From Eledone cirrhosa (taxonomy: Eukaryota), in NCBI GenBank assembly GCA_964016885.1, contig OZ024740.1, forward strand, positions 47,926,001-47,990,000: 64,000 nt of DNA, given 5' to 3'. The translations under genes and the position numbers were made by a program. Positions 12,208 to 44,932 of the stretch are shown piece after piece. Every line of letters starts with the position of its first letter. The stretch's first letter is position 1. The notes under the pieces were generated by a model, which saw only the letters and a program-made list of their open reading frames with translations, was not told where the DNA came from and made no database searches.

Positions 12208-12289
<82 letters not shown>

Positions 12290-12303
12290 TTAATATAGAT
12301 GAG

Positions 12304-12346
12304 ATTCTACAGGACTAGAACTGTTTCATTCATTAGAAATCATCAG

Positions 12347-12350
<4 letters not shown>
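12304..12350 (-). ncRNA. Type I hammerhead ribozyme in a ~65-bp insert between (TA)n tracts
   Basis: Minus strand: attc-CTGATGA-t-ttc taat gaa-t-GAAA-CAG ttctagtc CTG-TA-gaat. Confidence 0.8.
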
Positions 12351-12408
<58 letters not shown>

Positions 12409-12838
12409 CGACGACTTGAGGTCGATTGGACGTACTCCATTTTTCTCTTTCTCTCTGACCTATCTCAACACAAACGTTATACCAACGAAGATATTTATTT
12501 CTCCTTTGCAATGAGCCACCTATTCTTCGCAGTAATGTCAGGTAAATCGTTGAAACTTCAGGTGGTCTGAAATCTGATGAGCATATTTTAATGTCTGTGA
12601 TCTCTCCTCATCTATTCTATTTCTTCCTTCCTTTCAATTCTTCGAGTAAACTCACATCGAGCCGCTTATTTCTGTCCTTCGAGGTAATGTTTTACCGAAC
12701 GCTGCTTCGACGGCATTTTGCTGTTTTAACAGCTTCCTTACGCCGAGGTTTTCCATTTTCCTACGAATTCTAATACACACGCGTTTCAAAACTCGACATT
12801 CGAGTTAATTTTGTTTATATATATATATATATATATAT

Positions 12839-13520
12839 GATACCAATGCAACAAACCACAAACCAAACAAGATACTACATCAATAGACAATCAAACCACT
12901 CGCAACAATTTAGCTAAAAACATCTCCCTGTGAATTTCCCGCCTCTCAGCTAATGAATAGAACTTACTACAATGTGGCTCTAGAGCACAGCGGGTTCAAC
13001 GAGCAATAACATACCCCCCTCCAGCCTATAGGGGACTCAGCAGGTTTAAACTTCCGGAAAATTACCTGGTTCAACACTCCACACAATGCCAATATTTCCA
13101 CACCAATAGCTTCGACATCCGTCATACTCCTTAAAAGGCAGGCCCTCTTCAACTCTGATATCATAAAATATTCTTTAGAAACATCATTAAATTCAAAACT
13201 GGATTTTATTTCTACGGATACATCTTTCATAACCCAGCCTGGTAAAAGGCCATGACACTTTTGAACCACAGTTGGCACCTTTCAATATTCAAGCACGTGT
13301 GTTACGTGTTATCGCACCTTTCAAGATGCAATGGAGTATCATATTCAAGGCCAAACCCTACACTGGGGAAGCAATCTGTGCAACCTTTGTTCCGAAGGAA
13401 CCATATACATATTGGAAGCCAATTAATCAATCTTAATAAAAAGGAAAAAAATCCGAACTCGTCGCATAGGATTTAAGAAACATGTCATCCACAAACGCGT
13501 ATACCACCCCAGAGGTAAAA
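12839..13520 (+). mobile_element. Decayed Penelope-like element fragment (RT C-terminus/linker to GIY-YIG)
   Basis: YINRQSNH and KITWFNTPHNANISTPIA (cf. the PLE RKIIWFNPP motif), later HIGS; frameshifted. Confidence 0.6.
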
Positions 13521-13636: not shown

Positions 13637-13641
<5 letters not shown>

Positions 13642-14441
13642 AGCGGAGCAAGCGGTTATCAAACAATTCTCTAAATAAATTAAAAAACGATTTAAATAAT
13701 CACCTGTTCTATTGCTGTTACCGACGGTTTCACCATTCCAAAAATTGGAAATCCAGAGAATTTCCAATGGAAAGAAATGGATCTTCAGACAGCTTATTTC
13801 CATACTATAAGGTTGCCAGCCTTACAGTAAGTAAATATTTCGCTTCCTGCCCAACGCATGCGGTCAAGCCGTTAAAATGACACACACGCAAAATCAGGTC
13901 GCAGATAATAGCTGTTTATTATAAACGTGTTGATATTGCCACTAAAATTAGCAGCATTATTCAACGTTTTGTTCTCTACATAAGGAGAAAAATTATATAG
14001 AGAACAAAACGTTGAATAATGCTGCTAATTTTAGTGGCAATATCAACACGTTTATAATAAACAACTATTATCTGCGACCTGATTTTGCGTGTGTGTCATT
14101 TTAACGGCTTGACCGCATGCGTTGGGCAGGAAGCGAAATATTTACTTACTGTAAGGCTGGCAACCTTATAGTATGGAAATAAGCTGTCTGAAGATCCATT
14201 TCTTTCCATTGGAAATTCTCTGGATTTCCAATTTCTGGAATGGTGAAACCGTCGGTAACAGCAATAGAACAGGTGATTATTTAAATCGTTTTTTAATTTA
14301 TTTAGAGAATTGTTTGATAACCGCTTGCTCCGCTCTTTTTATATTGTTCTGGTATCTCAAATTAGTACCATCGAACCACAAATATTATAAACACCTTGCA
14401 TATTTCTACAAGTACTTAGTGCCTGTTGAGGTATTCATCCA

Positions 14442-14445
<4 letters not shown>
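13637..14445. mobile_element. Fold-back HHR element: ~340-bp arms (13637-13978 / 13998-14339) plus 3' tail
   Basis: Near-perfect inverted repeat (2 mismatches seen), ~20-bp spacer, (TA)n on both sides. Confidence 0.92.
14183..14262 (+). ncRNA. Type I hammerhead ribozyme (mirror copy at 13714-13793 on minus)
   Basis: gctgt-CTGAAGA-t-ccatt..long stem II..aatgg-t-GAAA-CC gtc GG-TA-acagc. Confidence 0.87.
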
Positions 14446-14509
<64 letters not shown>

Positions 14510-14514
<5 letters not shown>

Positions 14515-15506
14515 GTGTTTTGCAACGGGTCACTTTGTGGCTCAATAAAGAGTTAATAAATTAAATAATCACAGCTATATATCATAAAACATGTCTATAG
14601 AATCACCAGATAAAATATATACCATTTCCTCTCCCAATTAGCATAATTAACCATATAAAAAATCGATTAGACCAAGCTAAAGGCTTCTATGAAGAAATCT
14701 CCGACAAATAACCGAAAGCAGCCCTTCGCGTCAGTTGCAACGGAATATTTATCGAGTATTTCGACAGCTTGTATGAATCGCCCAGATATACAGTCAATTA
14801 AACAGAATTAGGTGGAAAATAAACTAGAAGAAAAGTGAACACATTTAGTTACCGCTACCATGGTTTCGCCCGCATTTTAAGATATCCGATAGCATTGGAC
14901 ACCTAGAGCACTGGACTCTTCAGGAAGTTAGCTCAAATTTAGACAATAAGTTTTCCAAAGTGATCGCGCCAAGAATACATTCAAAAATGGCTAAGAATCG
15001 TGACGTAGCAGCGGTCAGGTTAGAAAGGATGTGAATAGTTGCTTACGGCTGGTGGCTTTTTGCTAGAAAGCGCAGCACAATACAGCCAAAATTTTATCTC
15101 AACCTTACGGGAGATTATTATATCACTTTGGAAAACTTATTGTCTAAATTTGAGCTAACTTCCTGAAGAGTCCGGTGCTCTAGGTGTCCAATGCTATCGG
15201 ATATCTTAAAATGCGGACGAAACCATGGTAGAGGTAACTAAATGTGTTCACTTTTCTCCTAGTTTATTTTACACCTAATTCTATTTGACTGTATATCTGG
15301 GCGATTCATACAAGCTGTCGAAATACTCGATAAATATTCCGTCGCAACCGCCGCGAAGGGCTGCTTTCGGTTATTTGTCGTAGATTTCTTCATAGAAGCC
15401 TTTATTCTTATAGCTTGGTCTAATCGATTTTTTTATATGGTTAATTATGCTAATTGGGAGAGGAAATGATATATATTTTATCTGGTGATTCTATAGACAT
15501 GTTTTA

Positions 15507-15510
<4 letters not shown>
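14510..15510. mobile_element. Fold-back HHR element, family A copy 1
   Basis: 14577-14965 is inverted at 15122-15510; flanked by (TA)n; homologous to 16027-17228 and 38711-39800. Confidence 0.9.
15158..15235 (+). ncRNA. Type I hammerhead ribozyme, canonical core, long loop II (mirror copy ~14850-14930 on minus)
   Basis: acttc-CTGAAGA-gtccg..cggac-GAAA-CCATGG-TA-gaggt. Confidence 0.88.
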
Positions 15511-15564
<54 letters not shown>

Positions 15565-15686
15565 TTTTCCGTTTATCGTTTTCGGTGCACCCGGCCGATT
15601 AACCCACTCGATATGCAAATTGAGCTACTCAGCTGTTAATATGCATAAGGTAAGTATATACGTTCAACAATCTGGCAGGAAGGCAT

Positions 15687-15729
15687 ACGTTGCTGACGAT
15701 AGCTAATAAGCTTGAAACTAGTACAGCGT
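15687..15729 (+). ncRNA. Minimal type I hammerhead ribozyme
   Basis: acgttg-CTGACGA-t-agct aata agct-t-GAAA-CTAG-TA-cagcgt; palindromic stem III ACTAGT. Confidence 0.85.
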
Positions 15730-15990
15730 TCCTTTGTCAGTGTTGAACAAACGAGCAACGATGGTTGCTGGACACTACGGCTTAATACGGGATGTTTGTT
15801 TACAAACACACCGAGCATTATAATAAATGTTCGGTGAATCCATACGTACATATATATATGTGTGCATGTATGTATATACATATACATACTACTGTACATC
15901 TGTATACATATATGTATGTACATTTACATACTTATATTTAAGTAACAGCCGTACTAAGAGTGGGAAATGAAATTTCTTTTCATTTTTTCC

Positions 15991-16026
<36 letters not shown>

Positions 16027-16030
<4 letters not shown>

Positions 16031-17222
16031 TAAATAATGTCTTTAGAATCATCAGATATTAAAATATATACTATTTCTTCTTCTAATTAGCATAATTAAC
16101 CATATACAAAATCAAATCTAGCAAGCTTTAAGAATAAATTTTCTTATGGGGAAATCTCTGACAAACAATCGATCGTAGCCTCTTCGCGGCAGCCCCGTTC
16201 CATTATTTATCGAACATTTCGACAGCATGTAGACTCCGACTAAATATACCATCAACCACACACAATTAGTAGTAAAATTAAACTTAGAAGAAATGCGCAC
16301 ATACCGTAATTATATCTCTACCGTAGTTTCTTCCTTATTTAGGACATCCAAAATAATATGAATTTCCAGAGTTAGGTTTCATAAGGAGATAAACTCAAAA
16401 TCAGACATTTAGTCTTTCAATCCGATCCCGCCAAATTTAGATTCAAAAATGGCTAAAAATCGCTATGTAGCTGTGTTCCAGTCAGAGAGAAAGAGTGTGA
16501 TTGGTTGCTTACGGCGGGTAGGCTTGCTGCTAGAAAGCGCAGCCATATATCGCCAAATTTAATCTCAACCAATTGGGAGATTATTAAATATAAAGGTTAT
16601 CATATACATAAAATTAAAGATATATATATGTTGCAACTGTTCACTTTTAAGCTCTATGAAGAATTAATACAGCTACATAGCGATTTTTAGCCATTTTTGA
16701 ATCTAAATTTGGCGGGATCGGATTGAAAAACTAAATGTCTGATTTTGAGTTTATCTCCTGATGAAACCTAACTCTGGAAATTCATATTATTTGGTTGTCC
16801 TAAATAAGGAAGAAACCATGGTAGAGATATAATTACGGTATGTGCGCATTTCTTCTAAGTTTAATTTTACTACTAATTGTGTGTGGTTGATGGTATATTT
16901 AGTCGGAGTCTACATGCTGTCGAAATGTTCGATAAATAATGGAACGGGGCTGCCGCGAAGAGGCTACGATCGATTGTTTGTCAGAGATTTCCCCATAAGA
17001 AAATTTATTCTTAAAGCTTGCTAGATTTGATTTTGTATATGGTTAATTATGCTAATTAGAAGAAGAAATAGTATATATTTTAATATCTGATGATTCTAAA
17101 GACATGATTTATGATATAATGCTCTGATTTTTTGATTTTAATTTATTAATTCTTCATAGAGCTTAAAAGTGAACAGTTGCAACATATATATATCTTTAAT
17201 TTTATGTATATGATAACCTTTA

Positions 17223-17228
<6 letters not shown>
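16027..17228. mobile_element. Fold-back HHR element, family A copy 2
   Basis: 16027-16473 is inverted at 16669-17115; HHR at 16752-16829 (tatctc-CTGATGA..GAAA-CCATGG-TA-gagata, weak stem II); 16583-16668 is the reverse complement of 17143-17228. Confidence 0.9.
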
Positions 17229-17304
<76 letters not shown>

Positions 17305-20031
17305 GGAAAAATTTGAACAGGGACAAAACAGAGAGGCAGTACAACGAATGTTTATTAATTTCACGCTCTGGAGAGTGGGGTGTTGGTGGGGGACGACGTT
17401 TCGGGCATAAGCCCTTCCTCAGGTGAGAATTGTGTGGGAGCAGAGTTCAAAGAGTGTGTAGGGGAGTGGTGGAGAGACATATAGCGAAAGGAAACGGTGC
17501 GAATGAAAAAATAAAAAATAAAGATAAAAATAAAAATAAAGCATGATCAAAATACAAGGAATGAGATAAATTTAAAAATAAAGGCATGATCAAAATAAAC
17601 TGAAATTAAAAGGGGGGTAAACAGGTGGTGGAAGGGTGTGGGGTGTGTAGGGGTGGTGGTGGGTGGAGTGGGGAAAGGGAGACGGGGTGTCCGAGCGGGG
17701 AGGGCTGAAGGTGGTGTGTGTGTGTAGGTGTGCGTGTGTGTGTGTGTGTGTATGTGAAAGTAAGGGTTGCGGGAAGAACGGGGTTGCATGTTCAGGAAGA
17801 GGTGTGTGTGTGTGGGGGGGTCGGAGTGTCTGTGCGTGTGTGGATAGAGGGGTGGGGGGAGAGGAATCAGGAGGCTGAGGGTGTAAATATGTGGTGGAAA
17901 GCACGTGTGTGTGGGGTTTAAGCGTGTTGTAGTTGTAGGTGGCGTGTGGAGAAAAAAAATTTTTGGGGGTGTGTGTGTGGGTGAGTTATATAGGTGATTA
18001 CGTAAGAGGATGGTTGAAAAGTTGGTAAATTCCGAAGATGTTTAGTGGATTGGTTGTTGGTCAATTTCTGCGTGTGGGTATTCCATGAAGTGATGGTCGG
18101 AAGAGGAGAGATGTGGGGTGCGCGCGCAACAGGAAGTGGTCAGCAGTGGGAGTGCTGTGGTCTGTTTGTGCTGGGAGGTGGTCAGAGGGCATAGCAGCAG
18201 TCGGTGGAATGGTAAAGGGGCGAGGATGGGTAGGTGTGAAAGTTGGAGTGAGGAGGGTGTGTGTGTGTGTATTAGTAGGAGTGTTAGTGGGATGAGTGAG
18301 TGTGGAGCGAGAGTGTGGGTGGAGCGGGGAGAGAAGGGTGTGTGTGGTTCTATGGAGGGAGTGTGGTGTACTGGTGTGTGTGTAGTTTGATGAAGAGGTG
18401 TTAGTGGGTGTTAGTATACGGGAGGTGAGGAGGGGTTGAATGCAGGTGTGAGTGGGGGTTAGTGGTGGTAGGGTGTGTAGAGTTGGTGGTGTACGAGGGT
18501 GTGTGGGTACGTGTGCGTGGGGTTGTGGGGTGTTAGTGATGTTAGTTGCGTGTGGGGTGGGTGGTGTAAGTGGGTGCGTGTGTTCGTGTGCTTGGGGTTA
18601 GGGGGTGTTAGTGAGGTTAGTTGCGGGGTGGTGGGATGGAGGTGTGGGGGTGAGAGGGTGGGGGTGAAGGTTAGTGGTGGTAGTAGGGTGTGTGTTTAGT
18701 GTGAGCGCGTGTATATATGTGCCGGTGGGTGTGTGCGTGTGATAAGAAGGGGGGAGGAGGAGGAGAGGGGAGGGAAGGGATGTTAGTATGTTAGTTGGGG
18801 AAGGGTGGTCAGATGAGAGGTGGAGTGGAGGTGTTAGTATTGTTAGTTGTGGAGTGGGCGGTGAAAAGGAGGGGTGTGTTAGTGGGGGATAAGTGTGGGG
18901 GGAGGGGGGCGGTCGAAGGCTAAAGGAATAAGGGTGGGGAGTTCAGGCCGGGGGGAGTGTGGGTCTGTAAGATGAAGATAGTACGTTGTTCGACCGTAAG
19001 GCGATTGGCGGGTGTTCCGTGGCACTGGAGTAGACCACAGACTGTGAGATGGCGTGCGGAATGTCCAGGGCCACCAAAGTGGCGGGCGATGGGGGAACTG
19101 CCCCCCGAGACGAATATCCCGGAGGTGCTCCGTGACTCGGTCCGCCAGGCGACATCCCGTCTGTCCGACATAAGTCGCGCTGCACTCCGTGCAGCGAAGT
19201 CCGTAGACTAGGTTGGAGGCGGTGCAGCGGAAGGCATGCCGGACCGAGAGAGAGTGGCCGTTGGGACCCTGGAAGGTGGTGGTGTTGGTGATGTGGGGAC
19301 AGGTGTTGCAGCGGGGCCTAGAACAGGGAAAGGAACCGGGGGGGAAGAACAGAGCGTGGGTTGGGGGGTAGGGAGCTGTGGACGAGGAGGGTGCGGAGAT
19401 TGCGTGCGCGTTTGAAGGAGGGGAGTGGTGGGGTTGGGAAGATGTGGGAGGTGGAGGGGTCGGACTGGAGGCGTCGGAAGAGGCGGCGGATGGTGCGGTG
19501 GAGGGGTGCGGTGGAGGGGTGGTAGGTGATGGGGAAGGGGAGACGGTGGGTGGGTGTGCGGTGGCGTGGGGTGAGGGTGGTGGAGCGGGGGACAGCACGG
19601 GCGCGGGTGAGAGCGGTGTGGACGAGAGGGAGGGGGGAGGTAACCTCTGCGGATGAAATGGCTGACTAGGGAAAGGGCCTGGGACTCAAAGTCAGCATCA
19701 CGGCTACAGAGGCGGTGGATCCTGAGAAGTTGGGAGTAGGGAATGGAGTGTTTAGTGTGGGTGGGGTGGGAAGAGGTGAAGTCGAGGTAAGAGTGGGAGT
19801 CGGTGGGTTTGAAGGAGGCGGAGGTGACGAGGGAGTGGTCGAAGGCGACGGAGATGTCTAAGAAGTGGACGTGGGTGGTGGAGATAGAGGTGGTGAAGTG
19901 GAGGGAGGGGTGGAAGGAGCAGAAGAAGGAGAGAAAGGAGTCGAGCTGTTCTCGGGTGAGGGTCGTGGCTCGTACAGTTCGGGCGTGGGGCCGGTGTACT
20001 GGGCAAAGATTTGGGCCTCAACATGGCCAAC
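17305..20031 (-). mobile_element. 5'-truncated Penelope-like element (Neptune-type): RT C-terminus + GIY-YIG endonuclease + C-rich 3' region + HHR
   Basis: Frameshifted FLDI..FKPTDSHSYLDF.SSHP..SIPYSQLLR..RLCS; CSRPRCNTCPHI; NLVYGLRC..YVGQTG..RVTEHL; SPIARHF..PPGLN; flanked by (TA)n. Confidence 0.9.
17393..17425 (-). ncRNA. Minimal PLE-type hammerhead at the element 3' end
   Basis: CTGAGGA-a-gggc ttat gccc-GAAA-CG-TC; stem I only ~2 bp. Confidence 0.7.
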
Positions 20032-20689: not shown

Positions 20690-21174
20690 GAATGTACGAA
20701 GCGCCGAGGGAATAAAGTTTATAGAAGATGCAGTATGCTTAGACGCAGGAAATAACTATAAAATAGAGACGGAAGAAGTTGACAGTGGCCACTACGAGAG
20801 ATCGAACATTGTATCTCTCAGATACCGACTGAGAGCTCTAGACGTGTTTACCCAATTTTATAAGCTATTCTATAATTATTTCCTGTGCTTGAAATTATTA
20901 CATCTTATATAAACTTTATTCCCTCAACGCTTCGTGAGTTCAAAAGTTCGGGCTTTGCATGTTTGTTTACATTTTCAAAAGCTGTTAGATTCAGTTCCTT
21001 AATTTAGACGATGGGATGTTGTCAGAACTCAATAGTTAGAGCACTCCACGGTATCTGAGAGATACGAGGTTCTATCCCTCGTAGCGGCCGTTGTCAACAT
21101 CTTCTGTCGCTAAGGGTGTCTACCATATTTTATAAGATATTTTATAGTTATTTCCTGCGTCTGAGTATACAACT

Positions 21175-25704: not shown

Positions 25705-25708
<4 letters not shown>

Positions 25709-25960
25709 GTAGAACACTGGAAGGTAATATCCGTAGTGGTAGAGGACTCAGTCCATGGGACGAGTTAGGTAGAAGTGGTTACACAACAGTTAGTTCACCA
25801 TCCCGAGAACAATTGTTTCACCTAAGCGGATCCTCAGCTCGTAATGGACATGGTTATACGGAACTGTTCCGTATAACCATGTCCATTACGAGCTGAGGAT
25901 CCGCTTAGGTGAAACAATTGTTCTCGGTATGGTGAACTAACTGTTGTGTAACCACTTCTA
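25705..25960. mobile_element. Fold-back HHR element: 191-bp palindrome (25770-25960, centre 25865) plus tail
   Basis: Almost perfect palindrome with a 1-nt centre, between (TA)n tracts. Confidence 0.92.
25883..25932 (+). ncRNA. Type I hammerhead ribozyme (mirror copy at ~25798-25847 on minus)
   Basis: ccat-ta-cgag-CTGAGGA-t-cc gctta gg-t-GAAA-CAATTG-TT-ctcg-gt-atgg. Confidence 0.8.
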
Positions 25961-26176
25961 TATATATATATATAGATATAAGTATTGAAATTTCCGTTGA
26001 AAATTGAAAAAGTCATAGGACTGAAGAGTGCTCTATGTAAGTTACAGAGCTAAATTTAATGTATAATAAACAATACAATATAATTACTTCATTACGCGTT
26101 TCTTGTATTCGTCTTATTCGGGAAATCTCTGATAATGAGGTAATTATATTGTATTGTTTATTATACATTATATAAT

Positions 26177-31877: not shown

Positions 31878-32083
31878 AAAGTTTAATTTAGAAATGGCTT
31901 CTACAGGACTAGAACTGTTTCATTCAAAAGAAATCATCAGGAAACGACTTGGATGGTGATTTATTTTGAATAAAACAGTTCTAGTCCTGTAGAAACCATT
32001 TCTATATTAAACTTGATGATTACACTCTACTAATGTATTGAGTCCCTTACTAACTGTGGTTACCCACGATTGAACGCAGGACT

Positions 32084-32093
<10 letters not shown>
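31878..32093. mobile_element. Short fold-back HHR element; intact HHR at 31898-31944 (-), broken mirror copy on +
   Basis: Same family as 12304-12350; its tail aatgtattgagt..actgtggttacc..gattgaac.caggact recurs at 21353-21405. Confidence 0.8.
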
Positions 32094-32364: not shown

Positions 32365-32693
32365 CGCCGAGGTTGACTTTGCCTTTCATCCTTACGGGGT
32401 CGATAAAATAAAGTACCAGTAATGTACTGGTTAATTGATGGCTTTGTGCCAAAAAGTAGAAACAATTATTTTGAGCCATAAAGTAAATGATTCCCTCTAT
32501 AAGATAAATTTAATTGTTTCTACTTTAGGCACAAGGCTAGCAATTACCCAGTGCATTACTAATACTTTATTTTATCGACCCCGTAAGGATGAAAGGCAAA
32601 GTCAACCTCGGCGGGATTTGAACTCAGATCGTAAAGAGAAGTAACTATGCTGGAAAGCATGGCGTCCGACCCTCTACCGATACTACCAATCCA
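32365..32693. mobile_element. Two Nin-type SINEs in inverted orientation (32365-32470 +, 32512-32693 -)
   Basis: Match to the SINE family above. Confidence 0.85.
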
Positions 32694-44625: not shown

Positions 44626-44932
44626 CACACATATAAACACAAAAACACAGTGTTGTAGTTTGCTTGAAGCATTGTGGAATAGGGAATACAAATTTAAATA
44701 AGTTTAAAAGCCTTTACAATGCATAGAAGATTGAAGATGCCAAGATAACAATAGAATTTTACCGTGGCAAATTTATCTCAAATATTTTCGGGTTTAAAAA
44801 CCCACTATCAAGAGAGGAAGTGTGTGAAGGTCTTCAAAGACCAGTCAGTGATGAGGTAAAATTCTCTCGTTATCTTTGCACCCTTTAATCTTCTATACAT
44901 TGTAAAGGGTTTTAAACTTATTTAAATTTGTG

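Follow-up and report, generated by a model that had tools for sequence, protein, structure and literature searches.

The window analysed here, a stretch of 64,000 nucleotides (nt) from Eledone cirrhosa (positions 47926001-47990000 of contig OZ024740.1, in an assembly of 3.0 Gb and 1796 contigs), contains six inserts, E1 to E6, each built on an inverted repeat. We propose that these inserts are head-to-head insertions of two kinds of element, the ends of Hydra-type Penelope-like elements (PLEs) and non-coding units that carry a hammerhead ribozyme, in which one arm ends at a short 3' end site (S) and the other at a long one (L), and that they were likely made by a Hydra-type reverse transcriptase (RT)-endonuclease priming on both sides of a cut (TA)n tract at two hairpin sites of one RNA. 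We put the probability of this reading at roughly 0.68.

Orientation and pairing of the insertion ends

The inserts belong to families F1 to F6, in the same order as E1 to E6; the families ran to between 323 and 3575 first-look candidates, of which 40 were scored per search. With single-arm queries for F1-F4 and F6 we fetched 150 loci, which after removal of 10 duplicates left 140, the window's own five copies included. F5 is excluded from all fold-back counts, and the first searches with F4, F5 and F6, which used whole palindromes, were kept out of them as well; the loci from those searches did enter the collection of tails, and those of F5 also the count of hammerhead cores. Ends were assigned by reading masked calls together with unmasked ends. 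Two 3' end sites, S and L, both at TA, are present in each family; their spacing is 105 nt in F1, 144 in F2, 108 in F3, 66 in F4 and 80 in F6. Fold-backs are present at 85 of the 140 loci, and all 85 run minus-then-plus, with both 3' ends outward, against none plus-then-minus. Among those with assignable ends, S is paired with L in 76/76 (11 of F1, 10 of F2, 17 of F3, 13 of F4 and 25 of F6). A preliminary description of this DNA had proposed that the arm orientation is not random and that one PLE-type integration route, in which both ends of a cut (TA)n serve for priming, is shared by the families; the orientation holds throughout the sampled fold-backs and the counts support a shared route, twin priming itself being what we infer from them. 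A 400-kb sample of stretches spaced evenly along the genome holds 66 inverted repeats; 31 have one side flush with TA and a 30-200-nt tail on the other, three have both sides flush, and all 17 hammerheads (in 11 of the repeats) face outward.

Within the window, masked self-BLAST recovered all six inverted repeats, (TA)n borders all six inserts, and in each of the six the left arm is sense on the minus strand and the right arm sense on the plus strand, as had been stated before. Each insert is longer than its palindrome, one arm being extended by a tail of 66-144 nt in five families and of ~70 nt, judged by eye, in the sixth (F5). The arms are 99.4, 93.9, 98.4, 98.9, 91.8 and 100% identical in E1 to E6, the last over 38 nt only.

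13639..14445: E1, F1 fold-back built from a tandem hammerhead unit of 467 nt; arms 13639-13997 (left, minus, S end) and 13998-14445 (right, plus, L end)
14511..15509: E2, F2 fold-back built from a unit of ~695 nt, a TA run within it included; arms 14511-15122 (left, minus, long end, stopping in that TA run) and 15123-15509 (right, plus, short end)
16028..17226: E3, F3 fold-back built from a unit of 669 nt; arms 16028-16669 (left, minus, S end) and 16666-17226 (right, plus, L end)
25706..25960: E4, from a protein-coding Hydra-type PLE (F4), of which it is a truncated 3' end; L arm minus, S arm plus
31879..32085: E5, short fold-back (F5)
61669..61845: E6, from a protein-coding Hydra-clade PLE (F6), likewise a truncated 3' end; S arm minus, L arm plus

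Where the arms of an F3 fold-back share at least 200 nt, each arm's nearest relative among the sampled copies is the other arm (8/8 cases; in F1 this is so in 1/3 cases), and none of the 6 inter-family junctions listed joins different families in opposite orientation. The similarity of the F3 arms and the lack of mixed-family head-to-head junctions favour one RNA per event. Same-direction fusions between families occur as F2-F3 (L032), F6-F1 (L014) and F5-F1 (L299), and are possibly template jumps or nested insertions. Microhomology could be measured reliably at only 23 of 67 junctions.

We envisage that a dimeric Hydra-type RT-endonuclease would bind two hairpins on one RNA and nick both (TA)n strands, that reverse transcription would start at the UA 4-11 nt upstream of each hairpin, and that the two cDNAs would copy the same RNA, a multimer or circle, stopping at variable points, so that repair joining the cDNA ends would yield a palindrome with a tail on one side. 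Having kept the hairpins, the non-coding units of F1-F3 would borrow the Hydra-type enzyme in trans, and the hammerhead would likely process or circularise the RNA, leaving no footprint at the insertion ends.

The two kinds of element and the hairpin at their ends

Other copies of F4 and F6 continue upstream into RT and GIY-YIG coding sequence. The translations of L301, L302 and L306-L308 hold RT and then a C-terminal GIY-YIG in one reading unit, every copy examined being broken, and L301 consists of an open reading frame (ORF) between two pseudo-long terminal repeats (pLTRs), preceded by a 3.3-kb inverted truncated copy. DKG is changed to DKT (SDKT in L301 and L302 of F6 and in L309, an F4 locus), a CxCX5C linker is found in L301, L307 and L308, CxxC-E in 6/6 coding stretches and the terminal CxH in 5/6; the N-terminal motif of F6 reads RWR across a frameshift, and the F4 copies examined are without an N-terminus. 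Both families have a hammerhead in the pLTR and insert in (TA)n. Their RTs are ~43% identical to each other and 29% identical to that of the Neptune-type PLE next to E3, and Atlas look-alikes carry HTH_animal, DUF8422 and RVT_1; Pfam scans of 11 PLE proteins returned no families, and a PDB sequence search with PLE proteins no match. The motifs DKT, CxCX5C, CxxC and CxH define the Hydra clade, almost all of whose families insert in (TA)n (PMC8557442), and by these motifs E4 and E6 are placed as truncated ends of Hydra-clade PLEs. Hence the earlier statement that the inserts hold no credible ORF stands for the window copies and for the units of E1-E3, and fails for the families of E4 and E6, which are coding.

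F6 accounts for 32 segments in the 400-kb sample. In its loci L211-L240, the 5' truncation points crowd within a few bases in stem II of the hammerhead, producing stereotyped ~180-bp palindromes with differing junctions, and this cluster is likely an RT stall site. For F5 no coding parent was found, its 'single-arm' query still holding the palindrome centre. The long end of F5 (L121-L150, L310-L339) is often followed by (CA)n, not (TA)n, and its own last bases are ACTCA, so the (CA)n could be a matter of target choice or of terminal addition.

Families F1-F3 consist of head-to-tail units with one hammerhead each. Natural tandems, cut between two hammerheads, give units of 460-467 nt (F1), 664-669 nt (F3 type) and 695 nt (F2), and F2 and F3 are 72% alike. 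Copies of these families extend through the hammerhead cut site, reaching a maximum just under two units (927, 1332 and 1324 nt), from which we infer that the template is an uncleaved multimer or circle; their 5' ends do not cluster at the cut site. Arrays beyond about two units are not found among 81 F1-F3 loci, though the flanks would have revealed them, and the F2 unit (L051, L033, L054) has a variable-length (TA)n run inside its own tail that is carried along in tandems. The longest stop-free frames are 103, 72 and 82 amino acids, and tblastn of F1-F3 against six PLE coding stretches gave no match at E<=0.05. Judged on sequence features, E1-E3 fit non-LTR retrozymes, for which self-cleavage and circular RNA are predicted, and a short palindromic stem III predicts that self-cleavage would depend on dimers (PMC4209133).

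Intact-core hammerhead motifs number 27 in the 400-kb sample against 0 in one shuffle, and the motif is not a product of chance. In copies of F1-F4, the core varies less than the rest of the motif (0.006-0.028 vs 0.028-0.062 per base), while in the older family F5 it is not less variable; within the three families F1-F3 the core is intact in 33/35, 33/38 and 33/36 copies. An Rfam scan at E<=1 gave 105 matches, none to a hammerhead family and the top ones being chance palindrome matches, so the motif calls rest on our own descriptor and on conservation across copies. Folding by minimum free energy did not return the hammerhead fold for most motifs. The longer F6 copies L218, L224, L226, L234 and L301 have a core with U3 and A8 replacing C3 and G8, which is a natural compensatory variant. 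In the window, the motif is complete at five places:

13719..13788, minus: type I hammerhead, E1 left arm; intact core, U-U at the base of stem II
14188..14257, plus: type I hammerhead, E1 right arm (descriptor)
15163..15230, plus: type I hammerhead, E2 right arm (descriptor)
16758..16823, plus: type I hammerhead, E3 right arm (descriptor); the core of the left-arm copy is mutated
31902..31940, minus: type I hammerhead, E5 left arm (descriptor)

On direct reading, mutations affect the hammerheads of three arms, the left ones of E2 and E3 and the right one of E5; that of E4 has a stem II of only 2 bp over a U-U pair, and E6 keeps the 3' half only. The preliminary description, which had seen a complete or partial hammerhead in both arms of each insert, is correct for complete motifs at the five places listed, with the others mutated, weak or half.

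The element ends also share a small bulged hairpin. It was first spotted by eye in 276 tails (46 groups) as the motif RYUC shortly after S followed downstream by its exact complement, which is present in 18 of the 46 groups against 1.7+/-1.3 in 300 shuffles and in 11 of 21 groups from the unbiased 400-kb sample alone; its first pair covaries (8 A-U, 7 G-C, none discordant). A stricter descriptor (NYUC, an inner stem, a U-led bulge of 1-2 nt, and GARN') matches 19/46 tail groups, compared with 0.8+/-0.9 in 200 shuffles. It is found 4-11 nt downstream of S in all six families and downstream of L in F1, F3 and F6 (3/4), which makes 9 of 10 tested S/L sites and takes in both the retrozymes and the Hydra elements; per retrozyme unit it matches at only 2-4 places. 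The F2 reference unit fails the descriptor at L, and the F2 copy of the window matches by eye; the L site of F4, which has no read-through copy, lay outside this test. The sharing of the hairpin was compared across F1-F6, with the Neptune end outside the comparison, and an alignment of six tail sequences was uninformative. The hairpins of the window are as follows:

14346..14376, plus: bulged hairpin in the E1 tail, just 3' of S; GUUC/GAAC variant
15097..15114, minus: bulged hairpin after L of the F2 unit (E2), by eye
16563..16580, minus: bulged hairpin after L of the F3 unit (E3), by descriptor and window sequence
17121..17162, plus: bulged hairpin in the E3 tail, just 3' of S; GCUC/GAGC
25746-25765, minus: tail hairpin of E4 (descriptor)
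32024-32043, plus: tail hairpin of E5 (descriptor)
61773-61796, plus: tail hairpin of E6 (descriptor)

The hairpin pair may go further and act as a loading code of the dimeric Hydra-clade RT, which alone would make the inverted arm and the one-sided tail of PLEs, with retrozymes hijacking the enzyme by keeping the pair; we consider the chances of this extended proposal to be evenly balanced. If it is true, both the enzyme and the cis-signal of animal retrozyme mobility would be named, and a programmable, (TA)n-targeted insertion system would be suggested.

The source of the enzyme and alternative explanations

The preliminary description had looked for the enzyme in a PLE of another type that adjoins E3:

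17303..20031, minus: Neptune-type PLE, 5'-truncated and split over three frames, with a CX4CxxC linker and GIY-YIG

The family of this element is abundant and young (copies 97-99% identical) in the Eledone cirrhosa genome, and it inserts in (TA)n. However, it has one 3' end in 30/30 copies, and none of the 23 copies with the 5' end in view has an inverted arm (>=30 nt), whereas the same query design gave fold-backs in 16/29 loci of F4 and 27/30 of F6. Its footprint thus differs from that of E1-E6, the proposal of a Neptune source is not borne out, and the enzyme is likely of Hydra type instead. It seems improbable to us that Neptune or another non-Hydra PLE (Poseidon, Naiad) supplies the enzyme for F1-F3, even though inverted arms and tails have been described for several PLE clades (PMC8557442) and our comparison in this genome is confined to Hydra and Neptune families, because it is the Hydra families F4 and F6 that have the hairpin in common with F1-F3.

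A different objection accepts the PLE origin and has the inverted arm arise through the use of two RNAs, through a template switch, or through repair in which one cDNA folds back. The existence of an L+L case (L301) and of same-direction chimeras such as those at L032 and L014 speaks for it, and the length of both arms often exceeds that of the tail, so that a one-RNA model needs strand displacement. Yet fold-back of one cDNA or a free choice of two RNAs predicts S+S, L+L and mixed-family pairs, and these are found in 0/76 fold-backs and at none of the junctions listed; we regard such an origin as unlikely, though less so than a Neptune source. The palindromic shape, the TA at both ends, the high copy number and the stereotyped short copies of F5 and F6 would also suit Foldback DNA transposons or elements like MITEs (miniature transposable elements with inverted repeats) with TA target sites, in which the hammerheads would be incidental. 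What defines these classes, equal terminal inverted repeats at both ends and a fixed interior, is at odds with the unequal ends (S and L) and with centres that vary among copies; tandems and single-arm copies occur, and in two families copies continue into sequence that codes for RT and GIY-YIG, all of which makes a DNA transposon very improbable. Least credible of all is a fold-back artefact of assembly or sequencing. Two read alignments on E1 show the family sequence at high depth, and its junction is bridged by no contig or read among the partial records listed, the runs perhaps being from other individuals. An artefact would mirror the flank too; here the flanks differ, as do the arms by substitutions, the arms stop at two distinct biological sites under a family-specific rule, and among the sampled Neptune copies of this assembly none is folded. 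On the strength of the end rule, i.e. orientation, S+L pairing and the one-sided tail, we exclude mirror artefacts and MITEs.

Several observations weigh against priming by a Hydra-type enzyme at two hairpins of one RNA. The 140 loci are best-scoring copies, not a random sample, and 9 of the 85 fold-backs could not be given an end assignment (locus edge, complex or odd ends). At 55 of the 140 loci there is no inverted arm, and among 37 single-arm copies checked just two have a tiny one; the fold-back is consequently what insertion produces rather than the element itself, and with the coding families of E4 and E6 this sets aside the earlier idea of a distinct class of non-coding fold-back elements. 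L301, a large F6 insertion outside the 140-locus set, has L at both ends, and the similarity of arms might come from gene conversion. The hairpin was defined on the same tails in which it was counted, leaving the L sites as the sole fresh test (3/4 by descriptor); it is missing from 27/46 tail groups, and these groups are related rather than independent, one of them merging F2, F3 and F5. The folding energies of the tails do not stand out (z between -1.06 and -1.95 for five of them, +1.09 for E2). An autonomous parent of F1-F3 was not found, and their end regions have no extended sequence in common with F4, F5, F6 or Neptune. Finally, the start site of the Poseidon PLE did not differ between strands (PMC11167929).

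Neighbouring features and comparison with known systems

Two further features lie among the first three inserts or next to them:

12432..13449, plus: remnant of a decayed Hydra-type RT/endonuclease, adjoining E1 on the left
15557..15995, plus: F7, a seventh hammerhead insert, a direct copy between TA runs, motif at 15693-15723

F7, which the preliminary description did not include, sits between E2 and E3. Its 3' end matches a tail group found in fold-backs elsewhere, one without the bulged hairpin, and one of its frames has a marginal tblastn match (E 0.03) to a Hydra-type stretch. A single-arm F5 copy with an intact hammerhead lies between two TA runs at 12289-12349 (minus), and a degenerate fold-back right of E4 (25975-26175), with a hammerhead-like core on its minus-facing tail side, resembles the tail groups L262/L293. 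Older or SINE-derived (short interspersed nuclear element) palindromes without TA flanks are present at 20696-20935, 44688-44931 and 32365-32613; at 1110-2477 is a 28-bp satellite of ~50 copies, and at 62015-64000 TA repeats form an array 2 kb or more in length. One SINE of the window may be of an octopus-like type.

Scars with one flush and one tailed side number 31 in 400 kb, a density of about one per 13 kb, and make up a large genome share, roughly 2 x 10^5 if this density holds for 3 Gb; they would easily be mislabelled as MITEs or hairpin RNA genes.

Twin priming of L1 leaves an inverted 5' segment with both 3' ends outward, the second primer annealing at variable internal sites and the segments being without overlap. 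The window families resemble this process in polarity and differ from it in that their sites are fixed and marked by a hairpin and their arms duplicate each other.

A close likeness is to PLEs of the Hydra clade as described in PMC8557442, which F4 and F6 match in DKT, CxCX5C, CxxC and CxH around E and N, and the C-terminal GIY-YIG, as well as in the hammerheads of the 3' repeat, insertion in (TA)n, the pLTR tandem with an inverted 5'-truncated copy, and the one-sided tail; the inverted 5'-truncated copy, the tail at one end and (TA)n targeting are published PLE features (PMC8557442). F4 and F6 depart from that description in the length of their tails (66-80 nt vs 30-40 bp), F6 in RWR instead of RWK, and strict S+L pairing and the hairpin are absent from the description in the part of the source at hand (PMC8557442). 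Poseidon of Anolis has been studied in vitro: both strands are cut and extended, two internal start sites bound the tail, the target is AT-rich, a dimer is predicted and hammerhead cleavage is dispensable (PMC11167929). Our model is like Poseidon in all these respects, i.e. two-strand extension, two start sites bounding the tail, an AT-rich target, a dimer and dispensable hammerhead cleavage, and unlike it in the clade and in the setting of the start sites, which in Poseidon lie in an AC-rich stem-loop; S+L pairing within single insertions and trans-mobilisation are not described in the available part of that work (PMC11167929).

Metazoan non-LTR retrozymes have been proposed to be moved by PLEs (PMC7229834; bioRxiv 10.64898/2026.07.22.740005). 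F1-F3 are like them in being ORF-less, low in GC, tandem, dispersed and present in many copies, with one type I hammerhead and a short palindromic stem III per unit, and in F1 stem II has a U-U at its base, like an axolotl motif. They are unlike them in having units of 467-695 nt rather than ~300-390, in arrays of at most about two units, and in that many of their insertions are inverted, and in insertion in (TA)n; neither the word 'inverted' nor 'microsatellite' occurs in the text of PMC7229834.

The layout and both kinds of element are therefore already known, and what the pairing rule and the hairpin provide is a testable mechanistic refinement. Our literature search, whose coverage stopped short of subscription papers and Repbase, found no statement of the pairing rule or the hairpin. 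The origin of the inverted arms of PLEs and the enzyme that moves animal retrozymes are open questions in the literature (PMC8557442; bioRxiv 10.64898/2026.07.22.740005), and the S+L rule together with the common hairpin makes both directly testable, with one protein clade, an RNA motif of 20-40 nt and two predicted start sites.

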